From Escherichia phage vB_EcoM_SA35RD, in the sequence record OL960577.1: DNA of 64,000 nucleotides; one strand, written 5' to 3'. The notes under the pieces are model-generated. The model was not told the origin of the DNA. It worked only from the letters and a program-made list of their open reading frames with translations, and ran no database searches. A program made the position numbers and the translations under genes. Positions within the stretch are counted from its first letter, which is position 1, and the number at the start of each line of letters is the position of its first letter. Shown here in pieces: positions 44,556-49,275 of the stretch.

Positions 44556-45026
44556 TTAATCATGTTTCCACACCCCATCGGTATTTGACCAAAGTCGCTG
44601 ATTATCTGATCCTCGCCACAGCTTTTTGGTCGGAAGATTTTTCTCATACTTCCCATCAATAATAACATCAACATATTTAAGCATTTCTAGTTGTTTAATA
44701 TCTTCAAACTTATATCCTGTCCACAACCAAATGCTTTTACTGGGATAAAGATTTTTTACTGTTTGAACAATGCAATGAATAACATCTCGATTATCAGGAT
44801 AGAGAGGGTCTCCTCCAGTTATAGTTAATCCTTCTATATAATCATTATTCAAACATTCAATTAATTGTTCTAGTGTCTCTCCAGTGAATGGAACACCGTT
44901 TCTAGCATTCCATGTTGATTTATTATAACATCCTTCACATTTATGCAAACAACCTGTAACGAAAAGAACGACCCTGCAACCAGGGCCATTCACAAAATCG
45001 CAAGGATAAAATCTATCATAATTCAT
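44556..45026 (-). CDS. nrdG: anaerobic ribonucleotide reductase activating protein (radical SAM)
   Basis: 156 aa; CLHKCEGCYN cluster; directly downstream of nrdD. Confidence 0.8.
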   Translation of the reverse strand: MNYDRFYPCDFVNGPGCRVVLFVTGCLHKCEGCYNKSTWNARNGVPFTGETLEQLIECLNNDYIEGLTITGGDPLYPDNRDVIHCIVQTVKNLYPSKSIWLWTGYKFEDIKQLEMLKYVDVIIDGKYEKNLPTKKLWRGSDNQRLWSNTDGVWKHD

Positions 45027-46840
45027 TGGTGTTTAACCCTATGCATGATTTCTTTATTTTTGCCAAGATTAAATCCGCGTTCGTTCGGATTTCCCAAATA
45101 ACCACAAGTTCTTCTTATTGTGTTCATCTTTTTAGGGTCAGTTTCTCCGCAAACTGAACAAACAAATCCGTTTTCAGTAGGAGTCATTTCATGGGTACTT
45201 CCACATGTAAAACATTTATCTACTGGCATATTAACACCAAAATAATCTAAATGTTGTGCGGCATAATCCCATACAGCCTCAAGACCTTTTAAGTTATTTT
45301 TCATATCAGGAAGTTCAACATAAGAAATGTGTCCGCCAGTCGCAATGAAATGATATGGGGCTTCGCGAGAAATCTTTTCAAACGGAGTGATATTTTCTTC
45401 TACTGAAACATGGAAACTATTAGTGTACCAGCCTTTATCAGTAACATCCTTTACACTTCCATATTTTTCAGTATCAAGTTTACAGAAGCGATAACAAAGG
45501 TTTTCAGCAGGTGTAGAATACAAACTAAAAGCAAAACCGGTTCTTTCAGTCCACTGTTTAAGATGAGCATTCATTTTAGTTAAAATTTCTTGTCCAATAT
45601 CACGACCGACAAGAATATTCAATTCGTGAATACCAATGTATCCTAGGGACACTGAACTTCTACCGTTTTTAAATAACTCAATTATATCGTCATCAGGTTT
45701 AAGACGAACCCCGAATGCACCTTCTTGGTAAAGAATAGGAGCAACAGTCGCTTTAACTCCTTTTAAGGAACTAATTCTACACATCAAAGCTTCAAAACAC
45801 AAATCCATTCGTTCATTGAACAATTCGGCAAATTTCTGTTCATTGAATTGTGTTCCAATATAAGAATCTAACGCAATGCGAGGAAGATTCAGTGTTACAA
45901 CACCAAGATTATTGCGTCCATCAAGAATTTCATTACCAGTCGAATCTTTCCATACACTCAAGAAACTACGGCAACCCATTGGAGAAACTGGAACTGAAGA
46001 ACCAGTAATAGCTTTATTATTCTTAACCGAAATAATGTCAGGATACATTCTTTTGCTTGCACATTCTAACGCAAGTTGTTTAATATCATAGTTCGGATCA
46101 TCTTTATAAAGATTAACACCTTCTTCAACGAACATAACAAGCTTAGGGAAAATAGGAGTTATTCCATCACGACCAAGGCCTTTAATGCGGTTTTTAAGAA
46201 TTGCTTTCTGAATCATTCGTTCAGTCCAGTCGGTTCCTGTACCAAATGTAATTGTTACAAAAGGAGTCTGTCCGTTTGAACTAAAGAGAGTATTTACTTC
46301 ATATTCATAAGCTTGGAATGCATCGTATACGTCTTTTTCTGTTTTAGATTGAGCATAATTCAACGCATCAGCGATTTGCCATTTTTCTGCATCTTCAACA
46401 TGTTTAGCGTATGTACGTTTAACATAAGGAGAAAGAACTTTATCGACATTTGCAAATGTAGTTCCGCCATACTGATGTGAAGCAACTTGTGCAGTAATTT
46501 GTGCCATAATTGCAGTAGCAACACCAATCGATTTAGGCGTTTCAATTTGAGCATTGCCTAATTTAAATCCATTCTCAAGCATCCCCTTTAAATCGACTAA
46601 ACAGCAATTGGTAAACGGAAGAGCAGGAGAATAATCAATATCATGCATGTGGATAATTCCACTTTCATGCGCATTCATAATAAAAGACGGGACCGTATTT
46701 TTGGCAATGTGCTTAGACACAATACCAGCCATAAGGTCCCGTTGAGTTGGAAAAACACGAGAATCTTTATTAGCATTCTCGTTTAAAAGGTCTTTATTAG
46801 TTTTATGAATTAATCCTTCAATTTCTTTTTCAATTTTCAT
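45023..46840 (-). CDS. nrdD: anaerobic ribonucleoside-triphosphate reductase
   Basis: 605 aa, uninterrupted; C-terminal zinc ribbon CFTCGSTHE...CSVCG and glycyl radical region RRTCGYLG. Confidence 0.85.
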   Translation of the reverse strand: MKIEKEIEGLIHKTNKDLLNENANKDSRVFPTQRDLMAGIVSKHIAKNTVPSFIMNAHESGIIHMHDIDYSPALPFTNCCLVDLKGMLENGFKLGNAQIETPKSIGVATAIMAQITAQVASHQYGGTTFANVDKVLSPYVKRTYAKHVEDAEKWQIADALNYAQSKTEKDVYDAFQAYEYEVNTLFSSNGQTPFVTITFGTGTDWTERMIQKAILKNRIKGLGRDGITPIFPKLVMFVEEGVNLYKDDPNYDIKQLALECASKRMYPDIISVKNNKAITGSSVPVSPMGCRSFLSVWKDSTGNEILDGRNNLGVVTLNLPRIALDSYIGTQFNEQKFAELFNERMDLCFEALMCRISSLKGVKATVAPILYQEGAFGVRLKPDDDIIELFKNGRSSVSLGYIGIHELNILVGRDIGQEILTKMNAHLKQWTERTGFAFSLYSTPAENLCYRFCKLDTEKYGSVKDVTDKGWYTNSFHVSVEENITPFEKISREAPYHFIATGGHISYVELPDMKNNLKGLEAVWDYAAQHLDYFGVNMPVDKCFTCGSTHEMTPTENGFVCSVCGETDPKKMNTIRRTCGYLGNPNERGFNLGKNKEIMHRVKHQ

Positions 46841-47310
46841 TTTAAACTCTTTCTAAGCTGCTTTTTGAATGAAGCTATTAATTGTGTTTTAGTATCAGAT
46901 TCATTATATTCAAATCCTCTTTGAAGCATCTCGGACATCATTTCCTCTTTACCTAGTCTTGAGAACTCTTTAGTTTTGTCTGGAACAAAATTAGGATGGA
47001 TATTATTATCAGAATAATCTTGTTTCAAATAAGCAAGAAGAGATTCAAGCCATTCGAGGTAGTCGACATCACGACCTTTAAGACCAGAACGGTTGAACTT
47101 ATGCTTCATTTGGCCTTCTGCTGCGTTGCACAGATTACAGAGTAACCCACGAACTCTACCTGCTTTTGGCCCGTTTAATTCGTGGTCGTGGTCAAGATGG
47201 TTACCTTGAACATCAGGGTCTAATTCACGGTGGCAAATAGGACACTTACCGTTCTGTGCATCATAAAATTTTTGTTTTTCTTCTTTGTATAATTTGCCAG
47301 ATAATAACAT
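46837..47310 (-). CDS. 49: endonuclease VII gp49 (Holliday junction resolvase)
   Basis: 157 aa; CPICHRELD...HLDHDHE...CNLCN zinc/His motif; TATAAATA late promoter upstream. Confidence 0.75.
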   Translation of the reverse strand: MLLSGKLYKEEKQKFYDAQNGKCPICHRELDPDVQGNHLDHDHELNGPKAGRVRGLLCNLCNAAEGQMKHKFNRSGLKGRDVDYLEWLESLLAYLKQDYSDNNIHPNFVPDKTKEFSRLGKEEMMSEMLQRGFEYNESDTKTQLIASFKKQLRKSLK

Positions 47311-47339
47311 AATAAACCCTTACCATATATAGATAAGGG

Positions 47340-47347
47340 TATTTATA
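47340..47347 (-). promoter_or_regulatory. T4 late promoter TATAAATA upstream of gene 49
   Basis: Exact TATAAATA on minus strand ~30 nt upstream of gp49 ATG. Confidence 0.45.
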
Positions 47348-47349
47348 AT

Positions 47350-47529
47350 TTAGTAAACGTTATAAAAGTCTCGATGAAAACGTTTATACTGTCGAATCAT
47401 TCTTTTAGTAGGACGTGTTACCGAAATGATTGAAGTCCTCATGTTCGGATTGTTTGGAGCCCCAATCATAATAAATTTCCAGGATTTTTGGCCGTTTGTT
47501 CTTTCGCCATAAAATAGTTCAGTTTTCAT
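47350..47529 (-). CDS. small basic protein, paralog of 47954..48124
   Basis: Hand translation MKTELFYGERTNGQKSWKFIMIGAPNNPNMRTSIISVTRPTKRMIRQYKRFHRDFYNVY. Confidence 0.3.
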   Translation of the reverse strand: MKTELFYGERTNGQKSWKFIMIGAPNNPNMRTSIISVTRPTKRMIRQYKRFHRDFYNVY

Positions 47530-47538
47530 AATAAACCT

Positions 47539-47952
47539 TTAACTTAAACGTCTTTCTAAATATTCAATGTATTCCGCTGCGGCTTGCATCAGATTACCTT
47601 CATAACCGTCATTATTTTCTTGGGCGGCTAATTTAGCTAAAGCATAAGAAATACGTTCACCTTCGAATTCGCCAAGTCCACCATCACAAACTACTTGGTC
47701 AATTTCTTCGAGTTCATCTATTGAATGGGATTCCCAGAAGCACCAAAGAGAAGTATCACGGTCATAGATGCAAAGTTTCTCACCTGTGTTCAACATCACT
47801 TCAATAATGCCATGGTCGCCATAACCATCTTCGGTAGTAGTACCAATTACCTTGATGATCGTATCTTTCTTTAATTCAGGAAACTTGACTTGTAGTTCTT
47901 CATCTTCTTTAACAATCTTGAACCATTTACCGCGAGTTTCAGAAATATTCAT
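47539..47952 (-). CDS. hypothetical protein
   Basis: Start moved to MNISETRGKW; flanked by two small paralogous ORFs. Confidence 0.4.
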   Translation of the reverse strand: MNISETRGKWFKIVKEDEELQVKFPELKKDTIIKVIGTTTEDGYGDHGIIEVMLNTGEKLCIYDRDTSLWCFWESHSIDELEEIDQVVCDGGLGEFEGERISYALAKLAAQENNDGYEGNLMQAAAEYIEYLERRLS

Positions 47953-47953
47953 A

Positions 47954-48124
47954 TCAATATTCTCTATAAAAGTTACGATGAGAACGTTTAGCTTTGCGAA
48001 GCTGACGTTTAGTAGGACGAACTGTAAATGGTTGTCCAGAGAAAAAATTCGGATCGGTTTTAATAAGCAAATACCAATCATGCTTGCCATTTTTTAATAA
48101 ACGGTACAATAATTTAACTTGCAT
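47954..48124 (-). CDS. small basic protein, paralog of 47350..47529
   Basis: C-terminus TVRPTKRQLRKAKRSHRNFYREY resembles VTRPTKRMIRQYKRFHRDFYNVY. Confidence 0.3.
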   Translation of the reverse strand: MQVKLLYRLLKNGKHDWYLLIKTDPNFFSGQPFTVRPTKRQLRKAKRSHRNFYREY

Positions 48125-48252
48125 AATAATCTCTTCCCATCTCCATATCAATTAATTCATTTATTGAAGGTTCATCATAACACGTTTCTTCGTCGTTGTA
48201 AACTGTTTCGACGTCTGGCTCGACTGTCTCCCATCGAGCCGAATACCATGGC

Positions 48253-48609
48253 TTAACCCCGGAGTTTATTGAGCTCTTCATAATCAATCCAGGATTCTAG
48301 CCCTGACGGCAGGTCACATTCAATGTTCCACAGAAGCTCTTCAATGGCTTGCAGGCGATTATATTCTTCAACGGTAATGGTAACCATTGGTGCAACCGGT
48401 TCTGTCTTTTTAACCATCATGTCGTTCATCAGGACGTAAAGGTCATCACGAACGACAGTGTCGTTCCATCCCCATGATTTGGCTTCGTAAGCTAATGATG
48501 AAGGGAGCACATTTAAAACTTCAATAATAGTTGGAGCATCAGGACCAAGTTCATTGGCACAAACTTCGTATACATCTTGGAAATCTTTAAGATTTAATGA
48601 ATATGTCAT
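48253..48609 (-). CDS. hypothetical protein
   Basis: 118 aa ORF. Confidence 0.4.
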   Translation of the reverse strand: MTYSLNLKDFQDVYEVCANELGPDAPTIIEVLNVLPSSLAYEAKSWGWNDTVVRDDLYVLMNDMMVKKTEPVAPMVTITVEEYNRLQAIEELLWNIECDLPSGLESWIDYEELNKLRG

Positions 48610-48869
48610 TTAAAATATTCTCGTAGTTGGTCAAAGCCACCGATCGAAGTTCCATCAGGAGCAAACACTTGAGGCATAGTCAATCCGACTTGTGATTCAC
48701 GTCCAAGCTTAACCAGAAGCTCAGCAATTTTTTCTTCATCGAATACACCTTTTTCTGGCATAACATTAATGAATTCGAACGGCTGTTTCTTAACAGTCAG
48801 CAATCGTTTCGCATTATCACAATAAATGCATTTATGAATAATAGAGTCATACCCGTACACTTTAAACAT
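48606..48869 (-). CDS. nrdC: thioredoxin/glutaredoxin NrdC-like
   Basis: Active-site-like CIYCDNAKRL; size ~87 aa; start at MFKVYGYD. Confidence 0.6.
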   Translation of the reverse strand: MFKVYGYDSIIHKCIYCDNAKRLLTVKKQPFEFINVMPEKGVFDEEKIAELLVKLGRESQVGLTMPQVFAPDGTSIGGFDQLREYFK

Positions 48870-49275
48870 TATTTTTCCTTTCATCGATTAAATATGCAAT
48901 GCCAAATACAATACATGTAATAAAACCTGTTATACAGATAGAAACCAACAACACTGTACCAAAGAACCAAATCAAGTTATCTTTAGTAGTTTGTTTGATA
49001 TCCATCTCACGAATTTCTATAGCTATCGTATCACCTTTATTCAGAAGCGTATAAAACGAAGGTGATACACGCCTGTCAAAAACTCGTCCTTGCTCATCTT
49101 TATAGACTGCAATAAATTCTAATTTAGAATATTTTCCTGTAGATTGGCCTGAGATTAATTCCACTACCTCCACAGGAATTACTTTAGTTTCCATGTAAGT
49201 ATTCTGGCTGTTCCAAATGAATGGAATAATAGCAAAAACTAAAGCTGCGATAAAACAACGAAGGCTATATCTCAT
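48862..49275 (-). CDS. hypothetical membrane protein
   Basis: 137 aa; N- and C-terminal hydrophobic segments. Confidence 0.4.
   Translation of the reverse strand: MRYSLRCFIAALVFAIIPFIWNSQNTYMETKVIPVEVVELISGQSTGKYSKLEFIAVYKDEQGRVFDRRVSPSFYTLLNKGDTIAIEIREMDIKQTTKDNLIWFFGTVLLVSICITGFITCIVFGIAYLIDERKNNV

Follow-up and report, generated by a model that had tools for sequence, protein, structure and literature searches.

DUF7279 paralogs around the Lon-inhibitor gene pin in an RB69-type phage and a candidate route to pin loss

Experiments have established that PinA of T4 inhibits the E. coli Lon protease (Hilliard et al. 1998 and Skorupski et al. 1988, both as cited in PMC8835725). Within the PinA family, biochemical work on inhibition of Lon ATPase activity and of proteolysis is known for this T4 protein only (cited in PMC8835725). 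Literature searches returned nothing on the PinA C-terminus in the searchable text, and no mention there of DUF7279 or of the RB69 ORF names.

The second described system of relevance is the modular shuffling of T4-type genomes. In their hyperplastic regions, intergenic cassettes composed of an early promoter and a stem-loop terminator (PeSLs) act as repeats in this process (Arbiol et al. 2010, PMC2839356; Comeau et al. 2014, PMC4122927). Short repeats around accessory genes thereby serve as recombination sites, and close relatives differ in these plastic regions by insertion, deletion and replacement.

The window analysed here, a 64-kb stretch of DNA, comes from a phage of T4 type that belongs to the RB69 group (Mosigvirus). 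Over the 1.9 kb surrounding the locus, identity is 99% to WFbE185, JK36 and JK45 and 96% to RB69. Two small, unannotated-looking ORFs in this stretch, here called ORF A and ORF B, are placed in a catalogued family, and the gene between them is named. We consider it rather likely that A and B are translated accessory early genes, DUF7279 paralogs around pin, that their basic helix probably binds nucleic acid, and that recombination between their tail repeats removes pin. Taken as a whole, the finding is an ordinary accessory gene family, real and already annotated.

The DUF7279 pair and the gene between them

The whole locus lies on the minus strand and is transcribed in the order nrdC, 118-aa ORF, 49.1, ORF B, pin, ORF A, 49, nrdD (Table 1). 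A sequence-only reading of this DNA had proposed two small ORFs flanking a 137-aa gene; all three were confirmed at the places and on the strand given in Table 1, as was the flanking arrangement, and the middle gene, which that reading left unnamed, proves to be pin. The start of ORF B was set at the ATG at 48124; the mechanical ORF list runs on to a TTG at 48151. This ATG overlaps the stop codon of gene 49.1 (ATGCAAGTTAA) and is preceded by GGGAAGAG, and the TGA stop of ORF B lies 1 nt ahead of the pin ATG. ORF A begins 9 nt downstream of the pin stop, in the reading frame of pin, with its ATG 6 nt past an AAGG Shine-Dalgarno sequence. Both ORFs would sit within the nrdC-49 early transcription unit.

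Table 1. Features of the pin locus in window coordinates
Feature	Position	Strand	Description
nrdC	48606-48884	-	locus gene order
118-aa ORF	48253-48609	-	between nrdC and gene 49.1
gene 49.1	48114-48287	-	57 aa, acidic, pI 4.05; phrog_2382, E = 1.7e-28; RB69 annotation
ORF B	47954-48124	-	56 aa from ATG; DUF7279 paralog upstream of pin
pin	47539-47952	-	137 aa; PinA-type Lon inhibitor (by profile match); acidic, pI 4.4
ORF A	47350-47529	-	59 aa; DUF7279 paralog between pin and gene 49
direct-repeat copy 1	47361-47415		DNA for the ORF A basic tail
direct-repeat copy 2	47965-48019		DNA for the ORF B basic tail
late-promoter motif and hairpin element	47316-47347	-	right-hand boundary of the ORF A module
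gene 49 (endonuclease VII)	46837-47310	-	conserved downstream anchor of the locus

Beyond ORF A, a T4-type late-promoter motif, TATAAATA, at 47347-47340 leads into a 9-bp hairpin (47340-47316) whose 3' arm holds the Shine-Dalgarno sequence of gene 49. The hairpin is terminator-like, with a fold of -12.8 kcal/mol and z = -2.1. This late-promoter and hairpin element before gene 49 is also kept in T4, PP01, FP43 and Shf125875.

The 137-aa ORF matches Pfam Inhibitor_I24 over positions 2-136 of 136 (E = 3.5e-47, 160 bits against a cut-off of 27) and phrog_2167 with E = 3.7e-51, and its counterparts in RB69 and JK45 bear the annotation pin. These matches identify it as pin, a PinA-type inhibitor of the host Lon protease. 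Pin proteins measure 161 residues in T4, 148 in PP01-type phages and 137 in RB69-type phages; the window protein is thus 24 residues shorter than the characterised T4 protein, and Lon inhibition by RB69-type Pin is a prediction. The pin gene is near-identical to that of RB69 while ORF A is about 10% diverged (dS 0.37), which places a mosaic boundary at the pin/A junction.

The two small ORFs belong to one family. Against Pfam PF23945 (DUF7279), with a gathering cut-off of 24.5, ORF A scores 53.1 bits over profile positions 2-53 of 53 and ORF B 54.5 bits over positions 1-53 of 53. Both match phrog_3272 end to end (1-59 of 59), with E values of 3.8e-30 for ORF A and 5.8e-27 for ORF B. Each also has perfect matches (100% identity) among the annotated hypothetical proteins of JK45 and WFL6982: ORF A corresponds to RB69ORF087c and JK45 gp083, and ORF B to RB69ORF089c and JK45 gp085. 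Members of DUF7279/phrog_3272 such as RB69ORF087c, RB69ORF089c, PP01 gp083, VR7ORF082c and JS98 ORF076c occupy the same slot by pin and 49 and have the same length as the window ORFs, and no difference was found between these known members and the window ORFs. By these profile matches and identities, both small ORFs are already catalogued and annotated members of DUF7279, a family without assigned function. Neither this placement nor the part that the duplication plays in recombination belonged to the sequence-only reading. No third copy was found in the 64-kb window when a profile of the pair was run against the 1243 stop-to-stop segments of its six-frame translation (next best E = 0.76).

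Tail repeats and the probable loss of pin

The conserved tails of A and B have a consequence at the DNA level, namely a direct repeat of 55 nt whose two copies share 76% identity at a spacing of 604 nt. Because the two copies flank pin, the gene is easily lost. The Mosigvirus Shf125875 lacks pin and has a single 171-nt gene between 49.1 and 49. This gene consists of B-type DNA, with one mismatch, up to ...CATCGTAACTTTTATA, then takes the A-type end AACATTTACTAA and continues into the late promoter and hairpin found downstream of ORF A. The start codons of B and gene 49 lie 814 nt apart in the window and 210 nt apart in Shf125875; the difference of 604 nt is exactly one repeat period.

The same junction is widespread. 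A 160-nt probe across it is unbroken in at least 28 phage records, among them phiE142, ST0, SHSML-52-1 and the AV109-116 series; matched to B-pin-A phages, it splits into two pieces spanning 764 nt. The records with the unbroken junction have a single B/A hybrid gene in place of the pair, lack pin and are shorter by exactly 604 bp. A rough tblastn census of Mosigvirus-type sequences, counting records at 80% identity or more, gives 144 records for B-type, 121 for Mosigvirus-type Pin and 53 for A-type. By this census, the full B-pin-A order of the window is a minority state, and the pin-less hybrid is present in about two dozen genomes. Arrangements with B and pin but no A (B-pin-49) are common; FP43 is one, its pin stop being joined directly to the late-promoter region.

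In the proposed mechanism, unequal or intramolecular homologous recombination between the B and A tails would excise pin. The crossover would fall toward the 3' end of the repeat, in the ACTTTTATA common to both copies, and its product would be one in-frame B/A hybrid gene without pin. Parsimony suggests the direction, a deletion from B-pin-A; an insertion would have had to regenerate the homolog in register and is far less likely. A much less probable reading is that selection maintains the flanking paralogs as homology arms, by which pin could be switched on and off in phage populations.

This arrangement resembles PeSL shuffling in that short repeats around an accessory gene act as recombination sites, with close relatives differing by gain, loss or exchange. 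Unlike PeSLs, the repeats here are the coding 3' ends of paralogs, and exchange between them yields an in-frame hybrid gene. No PeSL-like composite was found at the repeat positions, both of which fall within the small ORFs. The sole stem-loop, at 47316-47340, belongs to gene 49, and no minus-strand sigma-70-like site is paired with it. The locus thus offers a clean natural case in which coding direct repeats appear to mediate loss of an anti-host gene in RB69-like phages, and such loss is relevant to comparing and engineering therapeutic T-even phages.

Similar deletions acted elsewhere in the subfamily, placing a DUF7279 tail onto PinA in T4 and onto the first 14 pin codons in S16. In PP01, pin ends in ...SFSDRAF and a stop that overlaps the ATG of a full DUF7279 gene, itself ending ...KKMIRQYKRLHRMFYNT / ...RPTKKMIRQYKRLHRMFYNT and a stop. 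T4 Pin ends instead in ...SFSDR-MIQQYKRLHQMFYNT and a stop, followed by the same downstream sequence as in PP01. Relative to PP01, a 137-bp deletion in T4 (positions 1993-2129 of PP01 locus L003) joins pin in frame to DUF7279 codon 44, and the family HMM matches the T4 Pin C-terminus at E = 1.9e-5. By this comparison, T4 PinA closes with 15 residues that are a relic of a DUF7279 tail and not Pin sequence. The fusion accounts for the greater length of T4 PinA relative to the PP01-type and RB69-type proteins, and structure-function work on Lon inhibition by PinA should allow for these 15 C-terminal residues from a neighbouring gene.

Other phages show further variants. In Yersinia phage ZN18 (L008), a tailed pin is followed by a second copy of its final ~25 nt and after that by an entire DUF7279 gene. 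Salmonella phage S16 has two Pfam DUF7279 matches around an unrelated 116-aa gene, which raised the idea of a conserved cassette of two DUF7279 genes around a cargo gene. This was ruled out, since deletion gave rise to the downstream copy in S16: it consists of the first 14 pin residues, identical to the N-terminus of CGG4-1 pin, and a Moonvirus-like DUF7279 tail. In CGG4-1, an S16 relative, the 116-aa gene follows 49.1, and pin and a short remnant come next, ahead of gene 49.

Predicted fold and candidate ligands

AlphaFold2 models of the single chains, built from a 17-sequence family alignment, gave a compact fold for both proteins. The ORF A model (pLDDT 90.3) has strands at residues 2-9, 15-22 and 31-36 and a helix at 42-58; the ORF B model (pLDDT 81.2) has strands at 2-9, 15-24 and 27-33 and a helix at 39-55. 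Both share a strand-strand-strand-helix topology, in which about 57 residues form an antiparallel sheet followed by a C-terminal helix. This helix is the RPTKR...FY tail to which the sequence-only reading had drawn attention. It is amphipathic, with a hydrophobic moment of 0.75-0.77 and its basic residues at 80-200 degrees on the wheel. K42, R43, R46, K49, R50 and R53 lie on one face (K/R at i, i+1, i+4, i+7, i+8 and i+11), and the face packed on the sheet carries M/I/Y/F/H/F/Y. The proteins have pI values of 10.75 (A) and 10.82 (B) and net charges of about +9 and +11.

Searches of structure and family databases gave no significant relative outside the family. Foldseek against the PDB returned best E values of 0.67 for A and 0.83 for B with TM scores of at most 0.48, all insignificant; dsRBD, Dicer and Pur-alpha recur only among these insignificant matches. 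A profile search of PDB sequences yielded only chance beta-hairpin matches, the best of them a beta-propeller hairpin at E = 0.095. Across these searches, and in Pfam and NCBIfam, no significant structural or sequence similarity to a known nucleic-acid-binding fold (dsRBD, Pur-alpha, AP2/integrase arm-binding) was found, and neither the named NCBIfam families nor the PADLOC defence and anti-defence HMMs gave a match at E of 1 or below.

The nearest comparison is with the beta-beta-beta-alpha part of dsRBDs and with Pur-alpha repeats, which have the same order of secondary structure and a basic N-terminal part of the helix. It is an analogy at most, with Foldseek E values of 0.7-3, TM scores of 0.3-0.46 and no sequence relationship. 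dsRBDs also have an extra N-terminal helix, which sets them apart from the predicted DUF7279 fold.

The charge distribution and the type of fold, the two features from which the preferred mechanism derives, suggest that the basic helix face binds a polyanion, with nucleic acid (RNA or DNA, host or phage) as the most probable ligand. DUF7279 proteins might then act as small modulators of the infected cell through nucleic acid binding. The suggestion of the sequence-only reading that the basic tails bind nucleic acid is in this sense plausible. The main alternative is that the helix has an acidic protein partner. Such a partner could be bound by a basic helix just as well, and both neighbours, Pin and gp49.1, are acidic (Table 1). 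A confident fold model and the polyanion-binding hypothesis are by-products of the analysis for DUF7279 as a family.

The strongest competing explanation develops this alternative. It holds that DUF7279 belongs to the Lon/PinA system, with the aromatic basic helix binding PinA, gp49.1 or Lon, as a docking element, decoy substrate or PinA cofactor, and not nucleic acid. The order pin, DUF7279, gene 49 is indeed kept in Mosigvirus, Tequatrovirus, Gaprivervirus/Dhakavirus and Moonvirus, and T4 and ZN18 retain the last 15-16 family residues fused in frame to PinA. The charges are complementary as well, the net positive values of A and B facing -16 for Pin and -9.5 for gp49.1, and ORF B overlaps 49.1, with pin in frame with ORF A. 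However, the two partners also occur apart: at least 28 records have a DUF7279 hybrid without pin, and the reverse, pin without DUF7279, holds for FP43-type phages, Karamvirus and Jiaodavirus. The T4 fusion, moreover, may be a neutral by-product of deletion. On balance, we regard membership in the Lon/PinA system as unlikely.

A bolder version, which seems less probable still, makes DUF7279 an unrecognised Lon-directed module whose C-terminal helix (..KRxHRxFYxxY) docks on Lon or PinA. If true, it would account for DUF7279 travelling with pin in six genera and for the retention of precisely this helix in T4 as a fusion to PinA. The T4 PinA of the biochemical work would then be chimeric, with a tail that takes part in inhibiting Lon.

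Coding evidence, paralogy and distribution

The preferred reading of A and B as translated accessory genes draws on their pattern of substitution. Pairwise Nei-Gojobori dN/dS values for ORF A of the window are 0.13 against RB69, 0.09 against Logan contig L011 and 0.12 against Tequatrovirus PP01; between the ORF A orthologs of PP01 and Gaprivervirus VR7 the value is 0.25, and for ORF B of the window against its divergent ortholog in L011 it is 0.29. Synonymous sites are saturated in the comparisons between genera. Additionally, the conserved tail arginines of A and B are encoded by different codons (CGT/AGA, CGC/CGA, CGT/CGA), so that it is the protein that is conserved and not the DNA. The Shine-Dalgarno sequences and start/stop overlaps, the annotation of both ORFs in RB69 and JK45 and the confident AlphaFold2 models point the same way. 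ORF A and ORF B appear on this evidence to be genuine coding genes.

The same evidence bears on the view that the ORFs have no protein function, their conserved tails being DNA- or RNA-level elements for recombination or for regulation of gene 49 or pin, or the ORFs being decaying relics that happen to stay open. Their presence and absence is patchy, with many deletion derivatives, and the family is tiny. Moreover, RB69 ORF B has a +1 frameshift, caused by an extra A in an A-run, and is for this reason annotated as a 38-aa ORF. Against this stand the dN/dS values of 0.09-0.29, with saturated synonymous sites between genera, the differing codons for conserved Arg and Lys residues in A and B, and the confident, compact AlphaFold2 fold of both paralogs. 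Furthermore, Rfam gave nothing meaningful on the region, its sole match being to a plastid intron model at 27 bits, far under the gathering score, and no promoter-like site was found on the coding strand inside ORFs A or B. A lack of protein function is very improbable.

The relationship between the two ORFs extends beyond the tail that first suggested it. The sequence-only reading had called them paralogs because of a shared RPTKR..R..KR.HR.FY tail; the tail is present, and alignment of the two proteins gives 22 identities in 59 positions (37%) over the full length, with a BLASTP pair E of 1e-11. Y7, N12, G13, W17 and P28 are common to both and include positions in the N-terminal sheet. Chance resemblance of two low-complexity basic tails, for which nothing speaks except that the tails are short and compositionally biased, has next to no likelihood, being refuted by this full-length pair match, by phrog_3272 and by Pfam scores that lie about 30 bits above the gathering score for each ORF.

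The sequence-only reading had also staked its proposal on conservation in related genomes. This was borne out by tblastn, which finds A-like sequences in 372 phage records and B-like sequences in 408, that is, in about 370-410 of 50,697 records, all of them enterobacterial T-even relatives. The family is very small and limited to a handful of enterobacterial T-even genera. An exhaustive HMMER search of 1.84 billion representative proteins gave 11 matches at E of 0.001 or below, the phage ones being family members or fragments; the long matches, such as a 1685-aa ankyrin-repeat protein, were rejected as spurious repeat matches and not remote homologs. In a word-indexed protein search the family came to no more than 20 clusters at 90% identity, with lengths of 29-61 aa throughout, and a scan of IMG/VR found only 3 loci.

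Within the T-even phages, the slot formed by 49.1, pin and 49 holds DUF7279 in RB69, JK45, PP01, VR7, S16 and Merlin, with proteins of about 54-61 aa. An ortholog of ORF A lies between pin and 49 in Tequatrovirus, for example in PP01, at 56-60% identity, and positional orthologs at about 50% identity occur in Gaprivervirus VR7 and Dhakavirus JS98. DUF7279 is absent from beside pin in Jiaodavirus KPV15, Karamvirus PS49 and T4. The KPV15 and PS49 cases rule out a pairing with pin across all Tevenvirinae. The genes are dispensable in nature, a point against the preferred reading: many Mosigviruses of the FP43 type are without ORF A, these other phages lack the family beside pin, and ORF B of RB69 is frameshifted. 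B-type copies are found in Mosigvirus only. Foldseek against BFVD returned nothing beyond family members and a 54-aa protein of Moonvirus Merlin, which matches with TM scores of 0.83-0.90 and is a diverged positional ortholog of ORF A, as its position confirms.

Fusion of pin with DUF7279 tails

The last 15 residues of T4 PinA (MIQQYKRLHQMFYNT) correspond to the tail of a DUF7279 gene, a small basic family of T-even phages. Comparison of the T4 locus (L005, NC_000866, 1898-1945) with that of PP01 (L003, 1993-2177) shows that a 137-bp deletion produced this in-frame fusion of pin with the DUF7279 tail. An annotated hypothetical protein adjoins pin in T2, T6 and PP01-type phages, as expected if these phages have kept a separate DUF7279 gene, with sequence evidence from PP01 only.

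In Yersinia phage ZN18 a tailed pin, ending in …SFSDQKIRQYKRLHQMFYNT*, is followed by a repeat copy of pin's final ~25 nt and then by a complete DUF7279 gene. This arrangement (L008, 2480-2770) is a partial tandem duplication, and is possibly an intermediate, or a recombinant of T4-type and PP01-type loci.

Further rearrangement is seen in Salmonella phage S16 (L013, 3001-4831), which was compared with its relative CGG4-1 (L014, 2000-3010). The S16 order runs from 49.1 through DUF7279, a 116-aa phrog_13441 gene, a pin/DUF7279 hybrid and a SegE-like GIY-YIG endonuclease to nrdD, and this 49.1-to-nrdD interval contains no gene 49. The hybrid joins the first 14 codons of pin to a DUF7279 tail. 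CGG4-1 has an intact pin and gene 49, and its DUF7279 gene is reduced to a 15-codon remnant (MKLELKH...).

Divergence from RB69 and initiation-region repeats

In ORF B, the DUF7279 paralog upstream of pin, a run of 6 A in the window (48085-48095) is 7 A in RB69 (L001, ~2771-2790), breaking the RB69 frame after about codon 10; for this reason RB69ORF089c is annotated at only 38 aa. Either the lab strain truly carries this mutation, or the extra A is a sequencing error from 2003. Across 47350-47952, divergence from RB69 shifts sharply at the boundary between pin (~4 differences in 414 nt) and ORF A, the paralog between pin and gene 49 (~17 in 180 nt, dS 0.37). The shift points to a recombination breakpoint at that junction.

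Gene 49, ORF A and ORF B have translation-initiation regions that together make up a direct repeat resembling TAAGGGTTTATTATG on the coding strand, with 80-85% identity among its three copies. This repeat offers a further short homology through which ORF A could be gained or lost, as in FP43-type phages.

Features in and around the pin region of the window
Feature	Position	Strand	Basis or remark
Late-promoter and hairpin element, ORF A/gene 49 gap	47316-47349	minus	sequence, fold
Direct repeat, gene 49 initiation region	47308-47327	minus (coding)	
Direct repeat, ORF A initiation region	47527-47546	minus (coding)	
Direct repeat, ORF B initiation region	48122-48141	minus (coding)	
118-aa ORF	48253-48609	minus	RB69ORF091c and 092c joined as a single gene

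Promoter-hairpin element before gene 49

On the minus strand, a T4 late-promoter motif, TATAAATA (47347-47340), abuts a 9-bp hairpin (-12.8 kcal/mol, z = -2.1) whose 3' arm (TAAGGGT) includes the gene 49 Shine-Dalgarno sequence. The element is kept in T4, PP01, FP43 and Shf125875. For T4 gene 49, Barth et al. in 1988 reportedly found that the ribosome-binding site is masked in the long early transcripts but accessible in the late ones, which start inside the stem. The window element matches that arrangement.

Other differences in local gene content

The divergent Mosigvirus-like Logan contig ERR15137311_302 carries an additional 275-aa gene between ORF A and gene 49 (3780-4607 of L011), the N-terminus of which resembles DNA methyltransferases (phrog_5172, 2e-23; phrog_799, 2e-15). 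A 49.3-like gene of ~300 nt, present in JK45 and the other closest relatives between the 118-aa ORF and nrdC (48606-48884 in the window), is absent from the window. The window nrdD (45023-46840) is uninterrupted; in JK45 an I-TevII-like intron endonuclease divides the gene.
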